DNA of 5,797 nucleotides from a virus: positions 1 to 5,797 of the IMG/VR virus record IMGVR_UViG_3300020182_000003; one strand, 5' to 3'. The translations under genes were made by a program, and so were the position numbers. The notes beneath the pieces were generated by a model. That model saw nothing but the letters and a program-made list of their open reading frames with translations. It was not told the origin of the DNA and made no database searches. Shown one piece after another: positions 1-5,797 of this stretch (positions are counted from its first letter, which is position 1; every line of letters starts with the position of its first letter).

Positions 1-127
1 ATCTGAATTATTAGATAAATTATTATTTAAATCAGATAAAATTGGAATTTTAGAGACTTTTATTATTTCGTTTGAATTAAATTGAACCACGTTATTTGAT
101 ACTGAGAATGGTCTTGGGTTTGGTTTA
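1..127. repeat. Left copy of an exact 127-nt terminal direct repeat (identical to 5671..5797). This is an assembly overlap showing that the replicon is a 5670-nt circle.
   Basis: Comparison block by block shows bases 1..127 and 5671..5797 are identical. An ORF reads straight through the junction. 127 nt is a typical maximum k-mer overlap for de Bruijn assemblers. Confidence 0.95.
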
Positions 128-843
128 GGACCATCTGGTGAAAGAAAATTAAATAAAGTTGGTTTATTTTCATCAGAGTTTGCCCTGCGGCCAAGTAAAT
201 CAATTCCAAATGTTCTTTGCTGACCGGCTGAAGAAAAGAAATTGCCAATTTCTGTTCCTTCACCAAGCAATTCAGTAATTTGTCCCGCGCCCAAGCTTTG
301 AAATGGCTTGATACGCATGAATTCAGCAAGCGATTTAGGAATGACTAAATCAGTTCCTAAATAATTAGCAGGGACTTTATTATTAGTATCGTTATATTTG
401 CCCCAAACATCCTCAACTACTTTTGGCATTGCATTTGATGTATTCAATGCAATTTGAGATTTAATTAAATCGGTTTCTAATCCAAATTTTTGTTTTTGCT
501 GTTCCATCCCCATATAATTTTGATATCCACTATAAGCACCTGATAGGGCTTCTTTTATTCCAAAACTACCGTGATCAATTAATGGTGATGTATATTTGGT
601 AACAATATTACCCATTCCACCAGTTGTTCGAAGTGCTGTTAATGGATTAAAACCCGCCGCTCTGGCATCATCTGCTAATTGTTGAAAATTAACTCTTGTT
701 GAATTTGTTGATATTTCACCTCCACTTGTACGTGAATGTGATACTTTTTTATCAATTAGTCCGCCAATTCCTGCTCCAACTTTTGAACCTAATGGGCCAA
801 ATTGTTTTCCGAATAATCCGCCAATTGTACTAAATATACCCAT
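1..843 (-). CDS. VP2: DNA pilot / minor capsid protein (VP2-like, functional analogue of phiX174 H). This part holds the first 281 codons. The ORF leaves the window at base 1 and continues on the circle at 5670..5614, for 299 aa in total.
   Basis: I translated the minus strand by hand from ATG 843..841 to base 1 and found no stop. The same frame is closed upstream by TAG at 870..868. The N-terminus is glycine-rich and hydrophobic (MGIFSTIGGLFGKQFGPLGSKVGAGIGGLI). The motif FQQLADDARAAGFNPLTAL resembles the AAGLNPxLA motif I recall in gokushovirus VP2 proteins. The tail is Asn/Ser-rich. The gene sits directly upstream of the capsid gene. The ORF track misses it because each copy is truncated by the linearisation point. 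Confidence 0.82.
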   Translation of the reverse strand, partial: MGIFSTIGGLFGKQFGPLGSKVGAGIGGLIDKKVSHSRTSGGEISTNSTRVNFQQLADDARAAGFNPLTALRTTGGMGNIVTKYTSPLIDHGSFGIKEALSGAYSGYQNYMGMEQQKQKFGLETDLIKSQIALNTSNAMPKVVEDVWGKYNDTNNKVPANYLGTDLVIPKSLAEFMRIKPFQSLGAGQITELLGEGTEIGNFFSSAGQQRTFGIDLLGRRANSDENKPTLFNFLSPDGPKPNPRPFSVSNNVVQFNSNEIIKVSKIPILSDLNNNLSNNSD

Positions 844-935
844 TAATTTGATCCCAATAAATATGGGCTAAATAACGCCGCGCCAATTAAAATTCCCGCG
901 AGTAGGGCATATGTATATTGTTTTAATGTTGTCAT
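843..935 (-). CDS. 30-aa single-pass membrane peptide (MTTLKQYTYALLAGILIGAALFSPYLLGSN).
   Basis: The start is ATG 935..933, preceded by GGAG about 9 nt upstream. It forms an ATGA overlap with the stop of the upstream ORF. Its TAA (845..843) overlaps the VP2 ATG as TAATG. The hydrophobic core of about 19 residues is long enough to span a membrane. It is below the ORF-track size cut-off. Confidence 0.45.
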   Translation of the reverse strand: MTTLKQYTYALLAGILIGAALFSPYLLGSN

Positions 936-1237
936 TTTATAAATCTCCGTGTAAGGAGATCAATAAGAATACCGCAACCTAAAGTTGCGCCCAATACAAT
1001 GCTATCGACAGATTGAGTTGCAACACCCATTCCAGTCAAATATGCGCCTAATAGAGTACCACATCTAGTAATCAGTGGTCGAGCTATTGCTTTTATTAAT
1101 GTAATGTTTAAAATTTTAACCTCCTTGTTTAAGAGGTCAAAGTTACGTTTGGCCGATAATATATAGTATGATAACTTCCAAACGTAGTGTCCTTGACCTA
1201 CATGTTGTATGTAATTTGATTTCTTAACAGAAGTCAA
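932..1237 (-). CDS. Small hydrophobic glycine-zipper protein. The maximal ORF is 101 aa from a TTG start. A shorter form of about 60 aa (1114..932) is more likely.
   Basis: The C-terminal half, GTLLGAYLTGMGVATQSVDSIVLGATLGCGILIDLL, has two Gly-x3-Gly-rich hydrophobic segments. The strongest Shine-Dalgarno motif in the genome (AAGGAGG, minus strand 1126..1120) lies inside the ORF, 5 nt before an in-frame ATT (1114..1112). The TTG at 1237 has no SD and lies only about 9 nt downstream of a TATAAT box. The TGA stop (934..932) overlaps the next ATG. Confidence 0.5.
   Translation of the reverse strand: MTSVKKSNYIQHVGQGHYVWKLSYYILSAKRNFDLLNKEVKILNITLIKAIARPLITRCGTLLGAYLTGMGVATQSVDSIVLGATLGCGILIDLLTRRFIK
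1120..1126 (-). promoter_or_regulatory. Consensus Shine-Dalgarno motif AAGGAGG inside the 101-aa ORF.
   Basis: The plus strand reads cctcctt at 1120..1126. No ATG, GTG or TTG follows within 5-10 nt. The only candidate at normal spacing is the in-frame ATT at 1114..1112. Confidence 0.5.
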
Positions 1238-1260
1238 GAAATAAAATTATAATCTTTTTT

Positions 1261-1296
1261 CCTTGGAGAAAATAATTAAAATTATTTGCACCAAGG
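1261..1296. repeat. AT-rich 36-nt near-perfect palindrome (CCTTGG-ag-AAATAATT-aa-AATTATTT-gca-CCAAGG) spanning the stop codon of the basic ORF.
   Basis: Pairing by hand gives 15 of 18 symmetric positions complementary. The TAA stop at 1284..1282 lies inside it. On the coding strand a TATAAT box follows at 1251..1246. Confidence 0.7.
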
Positions 1297-1770
1297 AACA
1301 AAAGATTTTGACCCCCCTTTTCCTTTTTGTGCTTTTTTTGAATCTGGCCTTTCCTTACAAACGTCGCGCCTCTTTTTGGAGGACTGATCCTCAGGCTTTG
1401 GTTTTTCATTTCGGGCAGAATTGAGAGCAACAAGTTGCTCAAGTTTTTTTGATGGGGGTCTTGAGACCCCCAAACCCCCAACAATTTTGTGTTTTTGAAA
1501 TTGTTTTTGTTTTAGACCACGATCCGTCAGTCCTATTTTGTATAGGGTCCGTTCCAAACCTAATCGTTTAAACGATTGTGTTTTACTCCGAGATGGTACT
1601 CGATCGATTGACAAGACGGGTAGGGGGGGGAGTGTTATTTTTGGTTTTCTTTGCGTTTTCCAACGAGATAACACTTTTTTCACTAAACTTCTATTAACTG
1701 CTGCACTTCGTGGAGCAGTTAATAAGTTAGCGTTTTTTCTCGATTTTCTTCTTTTTCTGGTATTAGCCAT
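1282..1770 (-). CDS. Hypothetical highly basic protein of about 162 aa. It is a candidate DNA-binding/packaging protein, analogous to J or VP8 but much larger. Its coding status is uncertain.
   Basis: The frame is open for 188 codons. The first ATGs are at 1782 and 1770, and I chose 1770 (MANTRKRRKSRKN...). By my count it has about 46 K+R against about 10 D+E. It overlaps the VP4 3' end by 52 nt. The coding strand is A-rich and T-poor here, which makes stop-free frames more likely, and a second frame is also open for 86 codons. The stretch is packed with palindromes. Confidence 0.5.
   Translation of the reverse strand: MANTRKRRKSRKNANLLTAPRSAAVNRSLVKKVLSRWKTQRKPKITLPPLPVLSIDRVPSRSKTQSFKRLGLERTLYKIGLTDRGLKQKQFQKHKIVGGLGVSRPPSKKLEQLVALNSARNEKPKPEDQSSKKRRDVCKERPDSKKAQKGKGGSKSFVPWCK
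1454..1471. repeat. GC-rich hairpin GGGGGTC-TTGA-GACCCCC, inside the basic ORF.
   Basis: Perfect 7-bp inverted repeat with a 4-nt loop, read directly. It is flanked by another C5 run at 1475..1479. Confidence 0.75.
1562..1577. repeat. Perfect 16-bp palindrome AATCGTTTAAACGATT, inside the basic ORF.
   Basis: The sequence equals its own reverse complement. A second 8-bp palindrome, TCGATCGA, lies at 1600..1607. Confidence 0.85.
1692..1724 (-). promoter_or_regulatory. Conserved stem-loop, copy C. The stem is 11 bp (TATTAACTGCT / AGCAGTTAATA) around the invariant core GCACTTCGTGG. It overlaps the VP4 stop codon.
   Basis: The core 1703..1713 is identical to the cores at 3898..3908 and 5584..5594. 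The stem position next to the core is T:A here and A:T in the other two copies, a compensatory change. The VP4 TAA (1721..1719) lies in the stem. Confidence 0.8.
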
Positions 1771-2744: not shown

Positions 2745-2787
2745 GCTTCTCCCCCCTCCAATACTTGGAGTTTACGGGGGGAGAAGC
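2745..2787. promoter_or_regulatory. Nested GC-rich hairpin. It has a perfect 12-bp stem (GCTTCTCCCCCC / GGGGGGAGAAGC) and a 19-nt loop that itself folds as CTCCAA-TAC-TTGGAG.
   Basis: The arms at 2745..2756 and 2776..2787 are exact reverse complements. The inner 5-6 bp hairpin is at 2756..2770. It lies in the 143-nt non-coding gap between the peptidase stop and the VP4 start. Confidence 0.85.
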
Positions 2788-2790
2788 TCT

Positions 2791-2813
2791 GTTGAGTACG
2801 GGAGCTACTCAAC
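2791..2813. promoter_or_regulatory. Hairpin GTTGAGTA-CGGGAGC-TACTCAAC, 8 nt downstream of the peptidase stop on the coding strand.
   Basis: Perfect 8-bp inverted repeat with a 7-nt loop. A T4 run follows on the plus strand only. On the coding strand the hairpin is preceded by A4 and has no following T-run. Confidence 0.8.
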
Positions 2814-2821
2814 TTTTATGG

Positions 2822-3259
2822 TCAGTCAAATACTTGACCGTCCCAATCCTTCAATTGCCAATGTGCAGGATCATAAAATTCCCAATCAAACCCATTTTCA
2901 AGTTTGATATTCATTTTACGTGCAACATCATGGCCGATTTCATATAAAATCCGCCATTCTTTTTTTGTCATACCGTCCCATAGTTTTGTACTATGAACGA
3001 TATCTACAGCCGCACCGTATTGATGATAACTTTCACCCGCTTTTGCTTGTGAAAATCCTTTTTCATACAATTCTTGCTGACGTTCTGGTGTGCGCATCAT
3101 TTCAACCGCAAAAACTGGTATTGAATAGCCTTTGCAAGCTTTTACCATATTGCGTTCCCATTTGAGAATATCGGGGTGCGCGCCAATGCGCGCAGCCCTA
3201 AGTTGTTGTTGCTTGTAATTTATTGAATTAATAAATTGTTTATTCGCCATCGCTTTCAT
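2822..3259 (-). CDS. Zinc D,D- or L,D-peptidase of the LAS / Peptidase_M15 (VanY-like, M15_4-type) family. It is a candidate peptidoglycan endolysin of about 145 aa. An alternative ATG lies at 3250, and the maximal ORF extends to 3424.
   Basis: The motif RTPERQQELY is followed by SYHQYGAAVDIVH, giving H-x6-D with H134 at 3025..3023 and D141 at 3004..3002. A C-terminal DPAHW supplies H188 at 2863..2861. This is the His/Asp/His zinc triad layout of VanY and the phage T5 endolysin. A domain-only size of about 140 aa fits the ATG at 3259 or 3250. ATG 3250 overlaps the upstream stop (ATGGCGAATAA). No signal peptide or TM segment is evident. Confidence 0.87.
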   Translation of the reverse strand: MKAMANKQFINSINYKQQQLRAARIGAHPDILKWERNMVKACKGYSIPVFAVEMMRTPERQQELYEKGFSQAKAGESYHQYGAAVDIVHSTKLWDGMTKKEWRILYEIGHDVARKMNIKLENGFDWEFYDPAHWQLKDWDGQVFD

Positions 3260-3869
3260 TGCTAGATTGTGCGTTGTCGGCTGTGGCTTTCTCTGTACCA
3301 CTTTCTCCAAGTTTTGACGTATCTGTGCTACTGTCGTCTTTCTGAAGCCCGCTTGGCGGTAAAGTGGGTTTATTACCTCCCTTAAGTGGCGGGAAAGATC
3401 CTGTATCATTTTCAATAACCTCATCTTGTTTTGTTAATCTTTCCACTTGATCAATTAAAATTTGCTCGCGTTTTGATGTTTCTGTTTTTATCATATGCAT
3501 TAATCGTTCCATTTCTGGATTGCGTGTTCGACGCATTTCCAAACCAGTAAACTTAACATCCGAAAGTTTTTGTATTGTGTGATCTTGGGCGCGGTTTTTA
3601 TACGTAATAGATACGTTTTTGTCCTTACTTACTGCCCTAATATATGTTGTTGAACTAACGGTAGTGATTAATGTGAATAATCCCTCATCACTTACTAATA
3701 ATTTTTCATCATCAAAAGATTTTGTATTACTTGCATATATTGCAACTTTTTCTGAAGTGTTAAATTCAACACGAATGGTACGGTGGTTACCAATTACTTT
3801 AAATTCTAAATTTTCATTTAGTTTTAATTTGTTCCACCCGTCGAGAGCTTGAATTTGATATCGTTTCAT
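3240..3869 (-). CDS. Hypothetical 209-aa protein with no recognisable motif. It is a candidate scaffolding or decoration protein.
   Basis: ATG 3869 is preceded by AGGAAG at about 6 nt. It lies immediately downstream of the capsid gene and hairpin A. The N-terminal 100 aa or so show alternating beta-like segments (LEFKVIG, TIRVEFN, KVAIYAS, LFTLITTV, TYIRAVS, VSITYKN). A charged helical segment follows, then an acidic, Ser/Thr/Gly-rich and probably disordered tail ending NESDGE. Confidence 0.7.
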   Translation of the reverse strand: MKRYQIQALDGWNKLKLNENLEFKVIGNHRTIRVEFNTSEKVAIYASNTKSFDDEKLLVSDEGLFTLITTVSSTTYIRAVSKDKNVSITYKNRAQDHTIQKLSDVKFTGLEMRRTRNPEMERLMHMIKTETSKREQILIDQVERLTKQDEVIENDTGSFPPLKGGNKPTLPPSGLQKDDSSTDTSKLGESGTEKATADNAQSSNESDGE

Positions 3870-3889: not shown

Positions 3890-3916
3890 GCCCTGCAGCA
3901 CTTCGTGGTGCAGGGC
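3890..3916 (-). promoter_or_regulatory. Conserved stem-loop, copy A. The 8-bp stem is GCCCTGCA / TGCAGGGC around the core GCACTTCGTGG. It lies 6 nt after the VP1 stop and 20 nt before the ORF209 ATG.
   Basis: The 23-nt block CCTGCAGCACTTCGTGGTGCAGG is identical to 5578..5600. The outer pairs differ from copy B in a compensatory way. On the coding strand it reads CCTGCA-C-CAC-GAA-GTG-C-TGCAGG. No T-run follows it. Confidence 0.85.
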
Positions 3917-3922
3917 GGTTGC

Positions 3923-5527
3923 TTATTTTGATAATCTTGTTTGATCTACATCCTCGATTACTTTGTCGTAATCATCAGTGCTTTCTCTAATTGCAGGTCC
4001 GAATACGGTGTTACCCTCAATTTGAAATTCGCCTTTTGCCGTGATTTCAAAATTATCTACCGTACTATCTGCAAATATTTTGTGGTGAATATCCGTACAC
4101 ATGTACCAATCACTTGAAAGCTCAACATCGATTTTTTCATTGGCCCAAAATTTTTGGCGTTCCTCGTCAAATGAAGCATCGACAGTTGGCCTATAATATT
4201 TGCCTCCGATATTTGGTGTTGAACGCATGTAACCATGGTTCAATGGTGCATAACCAAACACACTGTCAGGGTCAGAATGGTTTTGGTCTATATAGCCGTT
4301 TCGGACAGGTTCGACTGGCTCGGGATCGAGGTAATTTTTTACAAATTCTGGATAATCGGTTGTATCTGTTGTTGTAAGAAACAAGTCTTGTGTTCTTTCA
4401 AATAAATTGTCAGGTACAATTTGACATACAACTATTATTGTTCCACCACATGTAATAGCCGGTACTGTCATAGATAAATCTATTGAAGCACCACCAACTG
4501 TAACATGTTCGTCTAAATTTGCGGCATCTGTTGCAAATCTTTGTTGCATACCCATTTGTTGCGTTTTTTCAGCTAACAAAATTGGGTGTCGCAATTGCTC
4601 TGTGGGCACATTGATACCAGCCATCATGAGGTCTATAATATACTCATCCGAGTGGCCTTGAAAATCTTGACGCATTTTTGCAAATGCTTGTGTTTTTCTC
4701 GCTAGTTCAATATTTGCTAATGATACTGTAATGCCATTATTTTCTAATTCGGCAAATACTTCTATAGCACCTGTTGTGGCACTTTGTTTTACATAAGGAC
4801 TATCGTTTGCATGAGTAGAAAAACCACTTTCATTTCCTTCATTTGTATGTAAATTATGAAATTGGTTAGACTTTGTTGCGCCTGAACCGGCACCATAAAT
4901 ACCAGTAACTCTTAATCCGTTACCAGTGCTATTTAATGATACTTCACCATCAATAATAGCCTGGTCGAAATCAGGCTTAATGTGGTTCATATGTGGGTTG
5001 TTCCAAAAGGCAGGTGCTAATGTTGCATCGGTCATAGTTCTATGATCAATAGATTTAGAAACTTCTGTTCGCATATGATTAATTAATAAATTATATGCTT
5101 CTAAATACTGTCTGTTTACAGTTGCACCTTGTGTTGCATGTATACCTAATGTTTTATAAAATTCATCATTTCTATTAAATGTATGTGTTTTAATAAAATC
5201 AATTGGTGTTTCACCATCTTCGCGTGGTACACCCATGTATGACCTATTTAAATCATCCATTCCATTGAAATTGTCTTCAGCTAATTTAGGTACCAAATAT
5301 GCTGATGCTCTAACGTTAATTCCATTAAAAATAGGTTCTGCCATTTCCATGGCTTCAACATTAACTATCATTCGACCGCGTCGTACACGATCTTCTCTTA
5401 ATAAAGGTATTACACCTACTGGAATAATTTTACCTGCATTTGCAGATGTAATAACTGTCTTTCGATCAGTTCTAGTTGATTTAACAACTGGTATTGGAGT
5501 TGTTTTTAAATTATTATTTCTTTCCAT
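3923..5527 (-). CDS. VP1: Major capsid protein (Microviridae VP1 / phiX174 F-like), 534 aa.
   Basis: It is the largest ORF in a 5.67-kb circular genome that encodes a microvirus-type Rep. The basic N-terminus is followed by AGKIIPVGVIPLLREDRV ... INVRASAYLVPKLA, which parallels the aGxLiPi...evlPGD ... FFVPxR pattern I recall for F/VP1 proteins. The RBS AAGGA lies 7 nt upstream of ATG 5527. This is a divergent member of the family. Confidence 0.88.
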   Translation of the reverse strand: MERNNNLKTTPIPVVKSTRTDRKTVITSANAGKIIPVGVIPLLREDRVRRGRMIVNVEAMEMAEPIFNGINVRASAYLVPKLAEDNFNGMDDLNRSYMGVPREDGETPIDFIKTHTFNRNDEFYKTLGIHATQGATVNRQYLEAYNLLINHMRTEVSKSIDHRTMTDATLAPAFWNNPHMNHIKPDFDQAIIDGEVSLNSTGNGLRVTGIYGAGSGATKSNQFHNLHTNEGNESGFSTHANDSPYVKQSATTGAIEVFAELENNGITVSLANIELARKTQAFAKMRQDFQGHSDEYIIDLMMAGINVPTEQLRHPILLAEKTQQMGMQQRFATDAANLDEHVTVGGASIDLSMTVPAITCGGTIIVVCQIVPDNLFERTQDLFLTTTDTTDYPEFVKNYLDPEPVEPVRNGYIDQNHSDPDSVFGYAPLNHGYMRSTPNIGGKYYRPTVDASFDEERQKFWANEKIDVELSSDWYMCTDIHHKIFADSTVDNFEITAKGEFQIEGNTVFGPAIRESTDDYDKVIEDVDQTRLSK

Positions 5528-5548
5528 TTACTTTTCCTTTTGGTTTAT

Positions 5549-5563
5549 ATTGCTTTCGGCAAT
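5549..5563 (-). promoter_or_regulatory. Small hairpin ATTGC-CGAAA-GCAAT (coding strand) just upstream of the VP1 RBS.
   Basis: 5-bp inverted repeat with a GAAA-containing loop, read directly. Confidence 0.5.
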
Positions 5564-5575
5564 TCTTACATTTAC

Positions 5576-5602
5576 AGCCTGCAGCACTTCGTGGTGCAGG
5601 CT
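5576..5602 (-). promoter_or_regulatory. Conserved stem-loop, copy B. The 8-bp stem is AGCCTGCA / TGCAGGCT around the core GCACTTCGTGG. It lies 11 nt after the VP2 stop and 48 nt before the VP1 ATG.
   Basis: It shares the same 23-nt block as copy A. The outer stem pairs are A:T and G:C here, against G:C and C:G in copy A. Confidence 0.85.
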
Positions 5603-5613
5603 TGCGTTTTCGT

Positions 5614-5797
5614 TTAGCGCCCAATTAAAAGATTTTGATTTGTTATTGAGTTAAAAAAATCAGTAACTTTATCTGAATTATTAGATAAATTATTATTTAA
5701 ATCAGATAAAATTGGAATTTTAGAGACTTTTATTATTTCGTTTGAATTAAATTGAACCACGTTATTTGATACTGAGAATGGTCTTGGGTTTGGTTTA
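5614..5797 (-). CDS. VP2: 3' end of the same VP2-like ORF. The unique part is 5670..5614 (18 codons KVTDFFNSITNQNLLIGR plus TAA at 5616..5614). The segment 5671..5797 repeats codons already counted in 1..127.
   Basis: The frame continues across 1/5670 (843 nt = 281 codons exactly). The stop codon TAA is the reverse complement of tta at 5614..5616. Confidence 0.82.
   Translation of the reverse strand, partial: KPNPRPFSVSNNVVQFNSNEIIKVSKIPILSDLNNNLSNNSDKVTDFFNSITNQNLLIGR
5671..5797. repeat. Right copy of the 127-nt terminal overlap. This is redundant sequence, not extra genome.
   Basis: Identical to 1..127. Confidence 0.95.

Follow-up and report, generated by a model that had tools for sequence, protein, structure and literature searches.

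The window, a stretch of viral DNA of 5,797 nt analyzed here at its full length, repeats bases 1-127 at 5671-5797 and therefore represents a circular genome of 5,670 nt. Every credible gene lies on the minus strand, in the order VP4, a 162-aa basic protein, two small hydrophobic ORFs, a VP2-like protein, VP1, ORF209, and an M15 peptidase (Table 1). In the Microviridae, the coding strand, here the minus strand, is the packaged (virion) strand as well. The window is a microvirus of the marine Occultatumvirinae: its VP1 aligns with the capsid proteins of Rhizobium and Roseobacter microviruses of this group (42-45% identity), and its gene order agrees with that of the Roseobacter phages CRPss-151 and -153, which have been assigned to this proposed subfamily (PMC11499846). 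The 299-aa VP2-like ORF has no Pfam match. Two papers on the subfamily (PMC11499846, PMC9753089) make no mention of hairpins, terminators, or origins, and a full-text literature search on Microviridae intergenic hairpins and terminators returned nothing relevant.

Table 1. Genes and hairpins of the window (coordinates refer to the 5,797-nt stretch)
Feature	Position	Strand	Details
VP2-like gene, 5' part	1..843	-	299-aa ORF, start 843, wraps round the circle; named by position and weak similarity to the 253-aa ORF upstream of VP1 in CRPss phages
VP2-like gene, 3' part	5614..5797	-	stop 5614-5616; 5671-5797 duplicates 1-127
Hairpin of the basic-protein gene end	1255..1302	-	spans the stop; -21.5 kcal/mol, z -6.1
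Conserved 162-aa highly basic protein gene	1282..1770	-	ATG 1770, stop 1282; overlaps VP4 3' end in another frame; hosts copy C
Hairpin copy C	1692..1724	-	TATTAACTGCT-C-CAC-GAA-GTG-C-AGCAGTTAATA; covariance model 46.7 bits
VP4 replication initiator, 319 aa	1719..2678	-	phrog_942 (4.5e-28); PF23343; stop 1719-1721
Long conserved hairpin between M15 and VP4, candidate origin	2746-2786		apical CTCCA-AGTAT-TGGAG, found in CRPss phages too
Gene-end hairpin after M15	2791..2813	-	8 nt past the M15 stop
M15-family peptidase/endolysin-like gene, 200 aa	2822..3424	-	profile matches
Gene-end hairpin after ORF209	3174..3198	-	~45 nt past the stop, inside M15 coding sequence; -22.6 kcal/mol; covaries in relatives
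ORF209 (function not assigned)	3240..3869	-	kept in relatives
Hairpin copy A	3890..3916	-	GCCCTGCA-C-CAC-GAA-GTG-C-TGCAGGGC; covariance model 47.9 bits
VP1 major capsid gene, 534 aa	3923..5527	-	phrog_514 match; 42-45% identity to Occultatumvirinae capsids; stop 3923-3925
Hairpin copy B	5576..5602	-	AGCCTGCA-C-CAC-GAA-GTG-C-TGCAGGCT; covariance model 56.1 bits

The original prediction concerned a stem-loop present in three copies (A, B, and C) around an 11-nt core. This core, GCACTTCGTGG, indeed occurs exactly three times, on the plus strand at 1703, 3898, and 5584; by simple arithmetic, about 0.003 exact matches would be expected by chance for a given 11-mer in 2 x 5.8 kb. On the coding/virion strand, all three copies have the same architecture, namely an outer stem, a C·C 1x1 mismatch, a CAC/GTG stem, and a GAA triloop. 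Copies A and B are identical over 23 nt (3892-3914 and 5578-5600), and the pair swaps described for the outer stems are present as claimed (GCCCTGCA in A, AGCCTGCA in B, TATTAACTGCT in C). Folding-energy calculations returned the expected shape for all three copies, as DNA or RNA and on either strand. The predicted RNA energies on the minus strand were -18.9, -17.3, and -16.2 kcal/mol (z = -3.1 to -5.4). The predicted DNA energies were -9.8 to -10.8 kcal/mol, and the nearest-neighbor parameters used are not known to hold a special bonus for a loop of this type. A covariance model built from the family found only these three sites in the window, all on the minus strand. An Rfam 15 search of the whole window (E <= 1) gave nothing at the hairpins; three sub-threshold, miRNA-like chance matches lay elsewhere.

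All three copies adjoin stop codons at 0-11 nt, as had been noticed. Copy A begins 6 nt past the VP1 stop, with 20 nt left between its end and the ORF209 ATG; copy B begins 11 nt past the VP2-like stop, and 48 nt separate its end from the VP1 ATG. Copy C holds the VP4 stop inside its stem and lies 46 nt downstream of the next start codon. Round the 5,670-nt circle, the copies are spaced 1686, 2195, and 1789 nt apart. Like intrinsic terminators, the copies are GC-rich hairpins directly downstream of genes. The coding strand has no T-run downstream of any of them, as originally reported; their flanks on the transcribed strand are AAACAACAT, GTAAATGTA, and GAAGTTTAG, with no U-tract directly 3' of the stem. 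Thus, they are not canonical intrinsic terminators, and a consensus terminator scan of the window had none of the three among its matches.

Copy C is not noncoding but in frame within a conserved protein gene, that of the basic protein (Table 1). The ORF starts with MA(N/R)..RK.., it is uninterrupted in every relative (113-164 aa), and its C-terminus, RPDSKKAQKG.GGSK.FVPWCK, is conserved; CRPss-153 has an annotated ORF at the corresponding place. Copy C is read as L-T-A-P-R-S-A-A-V-N, the hairpin part being T-A-P-R-S-A-A. Because the palindrome has its center at the third base of a codon, each third position of one arm faces a third position of the other, and the compensatory changes seen leave the protein unaltered in either arm. 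Specifically, CCA/AGT to CCG/AGC and ACT/GCA to ACG/GCC are synonymous, and so is the change of CGA to CGT in the loop. The earlier statement that the copies mark the ends of VP2, VP1, and VP4 holds for copy A, which follows the VP1 stop, and for copy B, which follows the VP2-like stop, but only approximately for VP4, as copy C tracks the basic-protein gene. Several relatives have the hairpin 27 to ~100 nt downstream of the VP4 stop, yet at a constant position within the basic gene.

Relatives of the window were gathered as ~50 non-identical environmental contigs by protein-anchored and pattern-anchored scans of IMG/VR and JGI metagenomes. They form two clades, one close (VP1 80-95% identical) and one more distant (~60%). 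The VP2-VP1 junction was sampled via a neighboring conserved 20-mer, so as not to select for the hairpin, and the post-VP1 and post-VP4 sites via the ends of the VP1 and VP4 genes. In these relatives the module occurs at the same three sites as in the window, where the covariance model scores it at 41 to 56 bits; the model found nothing in the CRPss, Rhizobium, or rat microviruses. All 23 distinct versions are fully paired, with double compensatory changes at 6 of the 11 pairs, although complete pairing is partly by construction, the counted instances having been picked for pairing. The covariation score over the 23 distinct sequences was 0.513; shuffles scored 0.134 and slid partners no more than 0.09. 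RNAalifold independently gave the same structure. The outer pairs show compensatory changes within orthologous sites. Selection on the structure, proposed at first from the three copies of the window, is thereby upheld in the relatives.

The variation within the module is narrowly confined. The inner stem reads CAC/GTG, CGC/GCG, CTC/GAG, or TAC/GTG, and the pair adjoining the mismatch flips from A-T to T-A. The triloop is C(GNA)G in 23 of 23 distinct sequences (GAA, GTA, or GGA), its first G and third A being constant. The C-GAA-G triloop was read correctly and broadens to G-N-A in the relatives; the G-N-A triloop is the DNA mini-hairpin motif of Hirao and colleagues (PMC13037366). The core itself, described as invariant, varies among relatives in two places, the central pair of the inner stem and the central loop base. 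The 1x1 position varies among C·C, T·C, and T·T but is always a pyrimidine·pyrimidine (Y·Y) mismatch and never a pair. Altogether, G10/C11 with G25/C26, C16-G20, G17, A19, and the Y·Y mismatch are fixed in all 23 distinct sequences at three unrelated sites, and mismatch and loop are retained across ~40% divergence of the capsid protein. Six of the 23 depart from Watson-Crick pairing, in every case by T·G on the coding strand. When the search was relaxed to admit any triloop and any 1x1 position, neither a repaired mismatch nor a non-GNA loop turned up in the family, and the site surveys contained a single degenerate copy, after VP4 in contig L086.

The module is dispensable and interchangeable with other hairpins. 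The post-VP2 module is missing in ~26 of 43 distinct contigs (~60% of relatives), and one contig (L008) has two copies of the VP2-VP1 junction, one with the hairpin and one without. After VP1, a hairpin is present in 29 of 29 distinct relatives with a predicted RNA energy of -18 to -23 kcal/mol whatever its apex, which may be the GNA module, a GNNA tetraloop (GAAA, GTAA, or GTGA), or, in 8 of the 29, an AT-rich stem. Substitutes at this site are GCCCCGC-GAAA/GTAA/GTGA-GCGGGGC or AT-rich stems, and the alternative apices include GCGAAAGC, GCGTAAGC, and GCGTGAGC. After the VP4 stop, relatives have GCGTTAGC and GCGACAGC, which are not GNRA; the GTTA and GACA tetraloops there match the DNA GCGNNAGC rule and not the RNA GNRA rule. 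In the basic gene, a weak palindrome coding for Ser/Thr takes the place of the module. Contig L257 has the module at none of the three sites, nor a GNA or GNNA hairpin there. The exact GCGAAGC heptamer is confined to relatives with a CGC/GCG apex (e.g., L003, L009, and L086), and the window copies read ACGAAGT, with A-T as the second pair.

An identical variant (CGC apex plus a T·G wobble) stands after VP1 in L003 and after VP2 in L009. In the basic gene, the flanks of the module differ between L247 and L009, and the module stands in place of a Ser/Thr-rich segment. Neither a transposase nor a target-site duplication is present. A degenerate 17-nt core searched against 185,579 genomes gave, among the matches listed, single chance-level matches, mostly in GC-rich taxa and probably coding, and the matches listed do not point to a host. 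Most of the 119 viral-contig matches to the core pattern were likewise at chance level. Loci selected for the 17-nt core reached at most 32.6 bits with the covariance model, as against 41 to 56 bits for full copies in the clade. Thus, among the genome matches listed and the viral contigs, full hairpins occur only at the three sites of this phage clade.

The module is part of a wider pattern. A strong hairpin stands at 6 of the 8 gene ends of the window, and this module at only 3. Among the 12 strongest 44-nt local folds of the coding strand, 6 lie 0-45 nt past stops (VP2, VP1, ORF209, M15, VP4, and the basic gene). Two of the six gene-end hairpins lie within coding sequence belonging to the following gene, which suggests that hairpins track gene ends and not merely free space. 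The CRPss and Rhizobium relatives have hairpins after VP1, VP2, and Rep; those after VP1 and VP2 in Rhizobium are U-less, and the post-VP1 hairpin of CRPss-151/-153 is followed by CTTTT and looks terminator-like. The three copies are therefore one sequence variant of a general feature of the group, a stable hairpin on the coding strand past the gene end. Separately, a census of hairpins (at least 5 bp, 3- to 4-nt loops) for G..A enrichment was dominated by chance hairpins.

The folding strand, judged from its base pairs, is the coding/virion-sense strand, because all wobbles are T·G there and the loops are G-N-A rather than T-N-C. An antisense terminator on the plus strand, where T-rich runs follow the stems, was rejected, since the wobbles would become A·C on that strand. 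A double-stranded palindromic protein site is also unlikely, because the outer stems differ wholly between copies and yet always pair. As the RNA and the virion DNA are of one sense, sequence analysis cannot fully tell them apart. The broad list of roles first suggested could nevertheless be narrowed to two serious candidates, an RNA hairpin at gene ends and a mini-hairpin of the virion ssDNA.

Our preferred reading, held just short of even confidence, is that the copies work in the RNA, as gene-end hairpins without a U-tract that terminate leakily or stabilize 3' ends, as in phiX174. We infer RNA as the acting molecule and 3'-end formation or protection as the effect. The hairpins would act on the polycistronic mRNA, a fraction of the transcripts ending at each of them. 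After termination, or after cleavage in the AU-rich flanks, the hairpin may keep 3'-to-5' exonucleases from attacking the upstream cistron at its 3' end. The outcome would be a graded set of messages like that produced by the leaky terminators TJ, TF, TG, and TH of phiX174. On this reading, a compact cassette, formed at the apex by the Y·Y mismatch, the C-N-C/G-N-G stem, and the G-N-A loop, was copied onto three pre-existing hairpin sites in this lineage.

Several observations favor the RNA role. The hairpins track stop codons, even into coding sequence; what has been kept after VP1 is stability and not sequence; at the corresponding place, a terminator-like version is seen in a distant cultured relative; and phiX174, of the same family, offers a precedent. 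The clustering of contig ends gives a weak hint in the same direction. Four independent partial contigs (L007, L301, L271, and L263) stop inside the post-VP1 hairpin or no more than about 20 nt from it, and 13 or 14 contigs begin in a ~90-nt stretch around and downstream of a conserved TTGACA-type box past the basic gene, a clustering that could equally reflect assembly breaks at strain-variable spots. Against the RNA role, canonical intrinsic termination is not expected where no U-tract follows the copies, and a plain stabilizer leaves the fixed G-C/C-G pairs, the unrepaired Y·Y mismatch, and the strict G-N-A loop unexplained. The C(GNA)G unit is extraordinarily stable as DNA, its RNA counterparts being much less so (PMC13037366), and the GTTA and GACA tetraloops obey the DNA rule. 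Moreover, copy B, if it terminates, would reduce VP1 expression, and it is absent in ~60% of relatives; copy C lies within a gene and, in some relatives, far from the VP4 stop.

That the module is a dispersed structural signal on the packaged strand, a mismatch-bounded mini-hairpin serving either as a multi-copy priming entry or as a protein-recognized condensation or packaging site, seems to us somewhat unlikely. In its priming form, the main rival to the RNA role but one that we rate as unlikely, virion-strand DNA mini-hairpins would be the entry point for host primase or RNA polymerase in complementary-strand synthesis. The C(GNA)G apex would stay folded and exclude SSB, the lower stem beyond the Y·Y mismatch could be opened, and three copies would provide redundancy. 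Such a role accords with the G-N-A loop and C-G closing pair of all 23 distinct versions, with the exact GCGAAGC of the CGC variants, with the virion sense of the folding strand, and with the occurrence in relatives of GCGAAAGC and GCGTTAGC, known from microvirus origins. An unrepaired Y·Y mismatch is also easier to rationalize in DNA or protein recognition than in a simple RNA stabilizer. However, the module is dispensable, as L257 and the AT-rich post-VP1 stems indicate, and the window apex is not the canonical heptamer. The complementary-strand origins known from microviruses each occupy one site and form larger structures of several hairpins, and a consistently placed primase trinucleotide is missing, CTG lying 3' of the stem in copy B only. 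The tracking of stop codons inside coding sequence is not predicted by an ssDNA role.

It is improbable, in our estimate, that the apex is instead a binding site for a phage or host protein that reads the flipped pyrimidines and the G-N-A loop, the copies then serving as operators or as dispersed signals for packaging or condensation. Candidates for the partner would be the basic protein, the inside of the capsid, or a regulator of translation. In all 23 distinct sequences, from three unrelated sites, the fixed positions do exceed the needs of pairing, the mismatch stays unrepaired even though quasi-palindromes tend toward template-switch "correction," and the spacing of the copies round the circle may be counted on the same side. 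Nevertheless, the module is lost or replaced at single sites and, in L257, at all three, and the copies have no common placement relative to the next start (A and B lie 20 and 48 nt upstream of it, C 46 nt downstream). The coding constraint on copy C, together with copying between sites, may account for some of the invariance, and we know of no sequence-specific packaging signal of this kind in the Microviridae.

A selfish or neutral quasi-palindromic cassette, functionless and spreading among pre-existing hairpins by template switching or gene conversion, appears decidedly improbable. It would account for the presence/absence polymorphism at every site, including the two junctions of L008, for the variant shared by different sites of L003 and L009, and for the differing flanks in the basic gene, where the module replaces a Ser/Thr-rich segment; in-frame insertion into genes is known for Rickettsia palindromic elements. 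It fits poorly with the restriction to three sites, which bear some other hairpin when the module is absent, and with the lack of full copies beyond the clade, where core-selected loci stay well below the scores of the family. The retention of mismatch and loop over ~40% capsid divergence, the independent compensatory changes in orthologous copies, and the lack of a transposase or target-site duplication also speak against such a cassette.

Recognition or nicking of the copies by the VP4 rolling-circle replication protein, an option in the original list of roles, is very unlikely: HUH endonucleases often recognize imperfect ssDNA hairpins and these hairpins are on the virion-sense strand, but three nick sites would split the genome into sub-genomic circles, the 3-nt loop is too small for a nick motif, and the long hairpin between M15 and VP4, with an apex shared with CRPss phages (Table 1), is a better origin candidate.

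Further candidates were rejected. The stems (11-15 bp with a mismatch) are too short for an RNase III site. The lack of an 11-6-11 architecture and the number of copies, three, speak against a XerCD/dif-like integration site. Translation of copies A and B by read-through was likewise set aside, since their frames differ from each other and from that of copy C and they lie behind stops. Sliding identity against L001 and L002 shows mosaicism, with breakpoints that are not on hairpins A or C, and recombination junctions were accordingly dismissed. The boundary between the VP2 C-terminus and hairpin B is the only sharp break in identity, and it may simply reflect the hypervariability of VP2.

Taken together, the comparative data show the module to be real, neatly defined, and well conserved, with a function that is probably ordinary. 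As a target of 27-33 nt, it is defined with precision and backed by comparison among relatives, its G-N-A loop being strict and its mismatch obligatory. Copy C is a natural case of a structured element within coding sequence in which both arms compensate by synonymous changes. In the sea and in guts, few ssDNA viruses are more abundant than the microviruses outside the phiX174/G4 group, and to our knowledge almost nothing is known of the cis-acting signals of these phages. If the packaged-strand signal were true, the module would be the first sequence-defined cis element at the ssDNA level outside the phiX174/G4 group of Microviridae, with one copy written into a coding gene in the single frame that pairs wobble positions with wobble positions. 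A DNA-level role would also link the mini-hairpin chemistry of Hirao to a second, distant branch of the family.

Among known systems, the module resembles REP sequences and Rickettsia palindromic elements (RPEs) in being a multi-copy imperfect palindrome past stops, with presence/absence polymorphism and one copy in frame. In contrast to these, it occupies only three fixed sites, in a single small clade of phages, has no cognate transposase, and is far shorter than RPEs; REP/MITE-like spread beyond the fixed sites was not seen, with no host copies among the genome matches listed. The promoters of the phage N4 virion RNA polymerase are likewise small hairpins with a 3-nt loop (GGA or GAA), have a 5-bp stem, and are recognized single-stranded (PMC13037366). 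Unlike them, the present copies sit after genes and not before early genes, and an N4-type promoter was rejected because it needs the 3,500-aa N4 virion RNA polymerase, which is not encoded and could not be in 5.7 kb.

The G4 complementary-strand origin is located in the intergenic region after the major capsid gene, and copy A is similarly placed. Whereas a G4-type origin is one site of ~100-140 nt with several hairpins, the module occupies three dispersed, dispensable sites of 27-33 nt. The mini-hairpin motif GCGNAGC/GCGNNAGC is extraordinarily stable in DNA (PMC13037366). It occurs as GCGAAAGC in hairpin I of the G4 origin and as GCGTTAGC in St-1 and alpha3, all Microviridae, and as CCGAAGG in ssiA of RSF1010; SSB binds such mini-hairpins poorly, and their RNA counterparts are much less stable (PMC13037366). 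The module shares with this DNA the G-N-A loop (sheared G·A) and the C-G closing pair, on the virion-sense strand of a microvirus (PMC13037366). Relatives hold the exact GCGAAGC, GCGAAAGC, and GCGTTAGC motifs of the G4/St-1/alpha3-type sites, whereas the window copies lack the full GCGNAGC heptamer, their second pair being A-T.

The closest parallel for the preferred RNA reading comes from phiX174, in which four weak intergenic terminators block 20-70% of transcription (bioRxiv 10.1101/2020.03.05.979765). The phiX174 elements have been called Rho-independent terminators and were found by terminator predictors, whereas the window copies are without a U-tract. Furthermore, the window copies differ in their common, sequence-specific apex and conserved mismatch and in the location of one copy within a gene. 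On the other hand, TJ, TF, TG, and TH belong to the same virus family and present the same arrangement, several hairpins in short gaps after structural genes of a polycistronic genome coded on a single strand. One phiX174 hairpin also follows the major capsid gene, as copy A does here. As in phiX174, several hairpins lie in the gene gaps of one microvirus genome, and the relatives keep hairpins at the matching sites.

The basic-protein gene opens with MANTRKRRKSRK and ends with RPDSKKAQKGKGGSKSFVPWCK, and its reading frame is uninterrupted in all relatives. It carries in frame hairpin copy C, the module copy at the end of the replication initiator gene VP4. Searches of Pfam and PHROG returned no match for this protein, which may be a DNA-binding internal protein analogous to J/VP8. 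Inside the gene, the CGAG/CTCG stem becomes GCAG...CTGC in three relatives (L005, L253, and L306), a covariation that alters the encoded peptide from SIDRVPSR to SVDAVPSA; the stem differs from the predicted minimum-energy fold. The hairpin over the stop of the gene is absent from the relative L001 and is also the source of a sub-threshold chance match to the Rfam family 'mir-2363'.

Coordinates and properties of the features described in the text
Feature	Position in window	Strand	Remarks
Two small hydrophobic ORFs	~846-1120	-	directly upstream of VP2
TTGAC(A/T) box with -10-like element	~1237-1140	-	conserved; 3' of basic-gene stop
Hairpin over basic-gene stop	1255-1302	-	-21.5 kcal/mol, z -6.1
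Basic-protein ORF	1282-1770	-	162 aa, highly basic, conserved; overlaps VP4 3' end in a different frame
Small covarying stem in basic gene	1589-1602 (within 1586-1615)	-	CTTGTCAATCGAT-CGAG-TACCAT-CTCG-GA, conserved
Long GC-clamped hairpin, M15 peptidase gene-VP4 gap	2746-2786	-	apex CTCCA-AGTAT-TGGAG
Second hairpin, adjacent to the former	2791-2813	-	
M15-family peptidase gene	2822-3424	-	~185-nt overlap with ORF209
Strong hairpin	3174-3198	-	GGGCTGCGCGC-ATTG-GCGCGCACCC, -22.6 kcal/mol
20-mer at VP2-VP1 junction	5548-5567	-	AAGAATTGCCGAAAGCAATA; small hairpin 5549-5563, ATTGC-CGAAA-GCAAT

At the VP2-VP1 junction, the small ATTGC-CGAAA-GCAAT hairpin lies past hairpin B and ahead of the VP1 ribosome-binding site. 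The surrounding 20-mer is exact in 11 of the 12 relatives covering the junction, all located by means other than the 20-mer itself, and L003 differs by one base. The exact carriers include relatives devoid of hairpin B. The 20-mer may be a VP1 expression element. The contig L008 (7,039 nt, above unit length) holds two VP2-VP1 junctions (1122-1141 and 6585-6604) 5,463 nt apart, where hairpin B is present at one (6550-6576) and missing at the other. Thus, L008 indicates a presence/absence polymorphism of hairpin B inside a single sample.

Directly downstream of the TTGAC(A/T) box, 13-14 of ~40 partial environmental contigs start within a ~90-nt stretch, in the surroundings of the conserved TATCGGCC. 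Several partial contigs end at the post-VP1 hairpin. The loci in this observation include L006, L007, L084, L258, L267, L274, L297, and L307, among others. These starts and ends could reflect either transcript boundaries or assembly breaks.

The strong 3174-3198 hairpin lies ~45 nt past the ORF209 stop, within the M15 coding sequence, and covaries via a G·U intermediate (C-G in the window, U·G in L001, and U-A in L002). The M15-family peptidase and the two hydrophobic ORFs may together constitute a lysis set of the holin/endolysin type, an unusual feature for Microviridae. One of these ORFs (~65 aa) has no clear start codon, and the other (30 aa) starts with MTTLKQYTYALLAGILIGAALF.

The long hairpin between the M15 gene and VP4 is a candidate for the viral-strand origin or the Rep nick site. 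Its CTCCA/TGGAG apex also occurs in the close relatives L001-L004 and is shared by the cultured Roseobacter phages CRPss-151/153 (CTCCATATATTGGAG); the more distant clade (~60% VP1 identity) has a variant apex. The AGTATT in the window's apex is reminiscent of the circovirus nonanucleotide.
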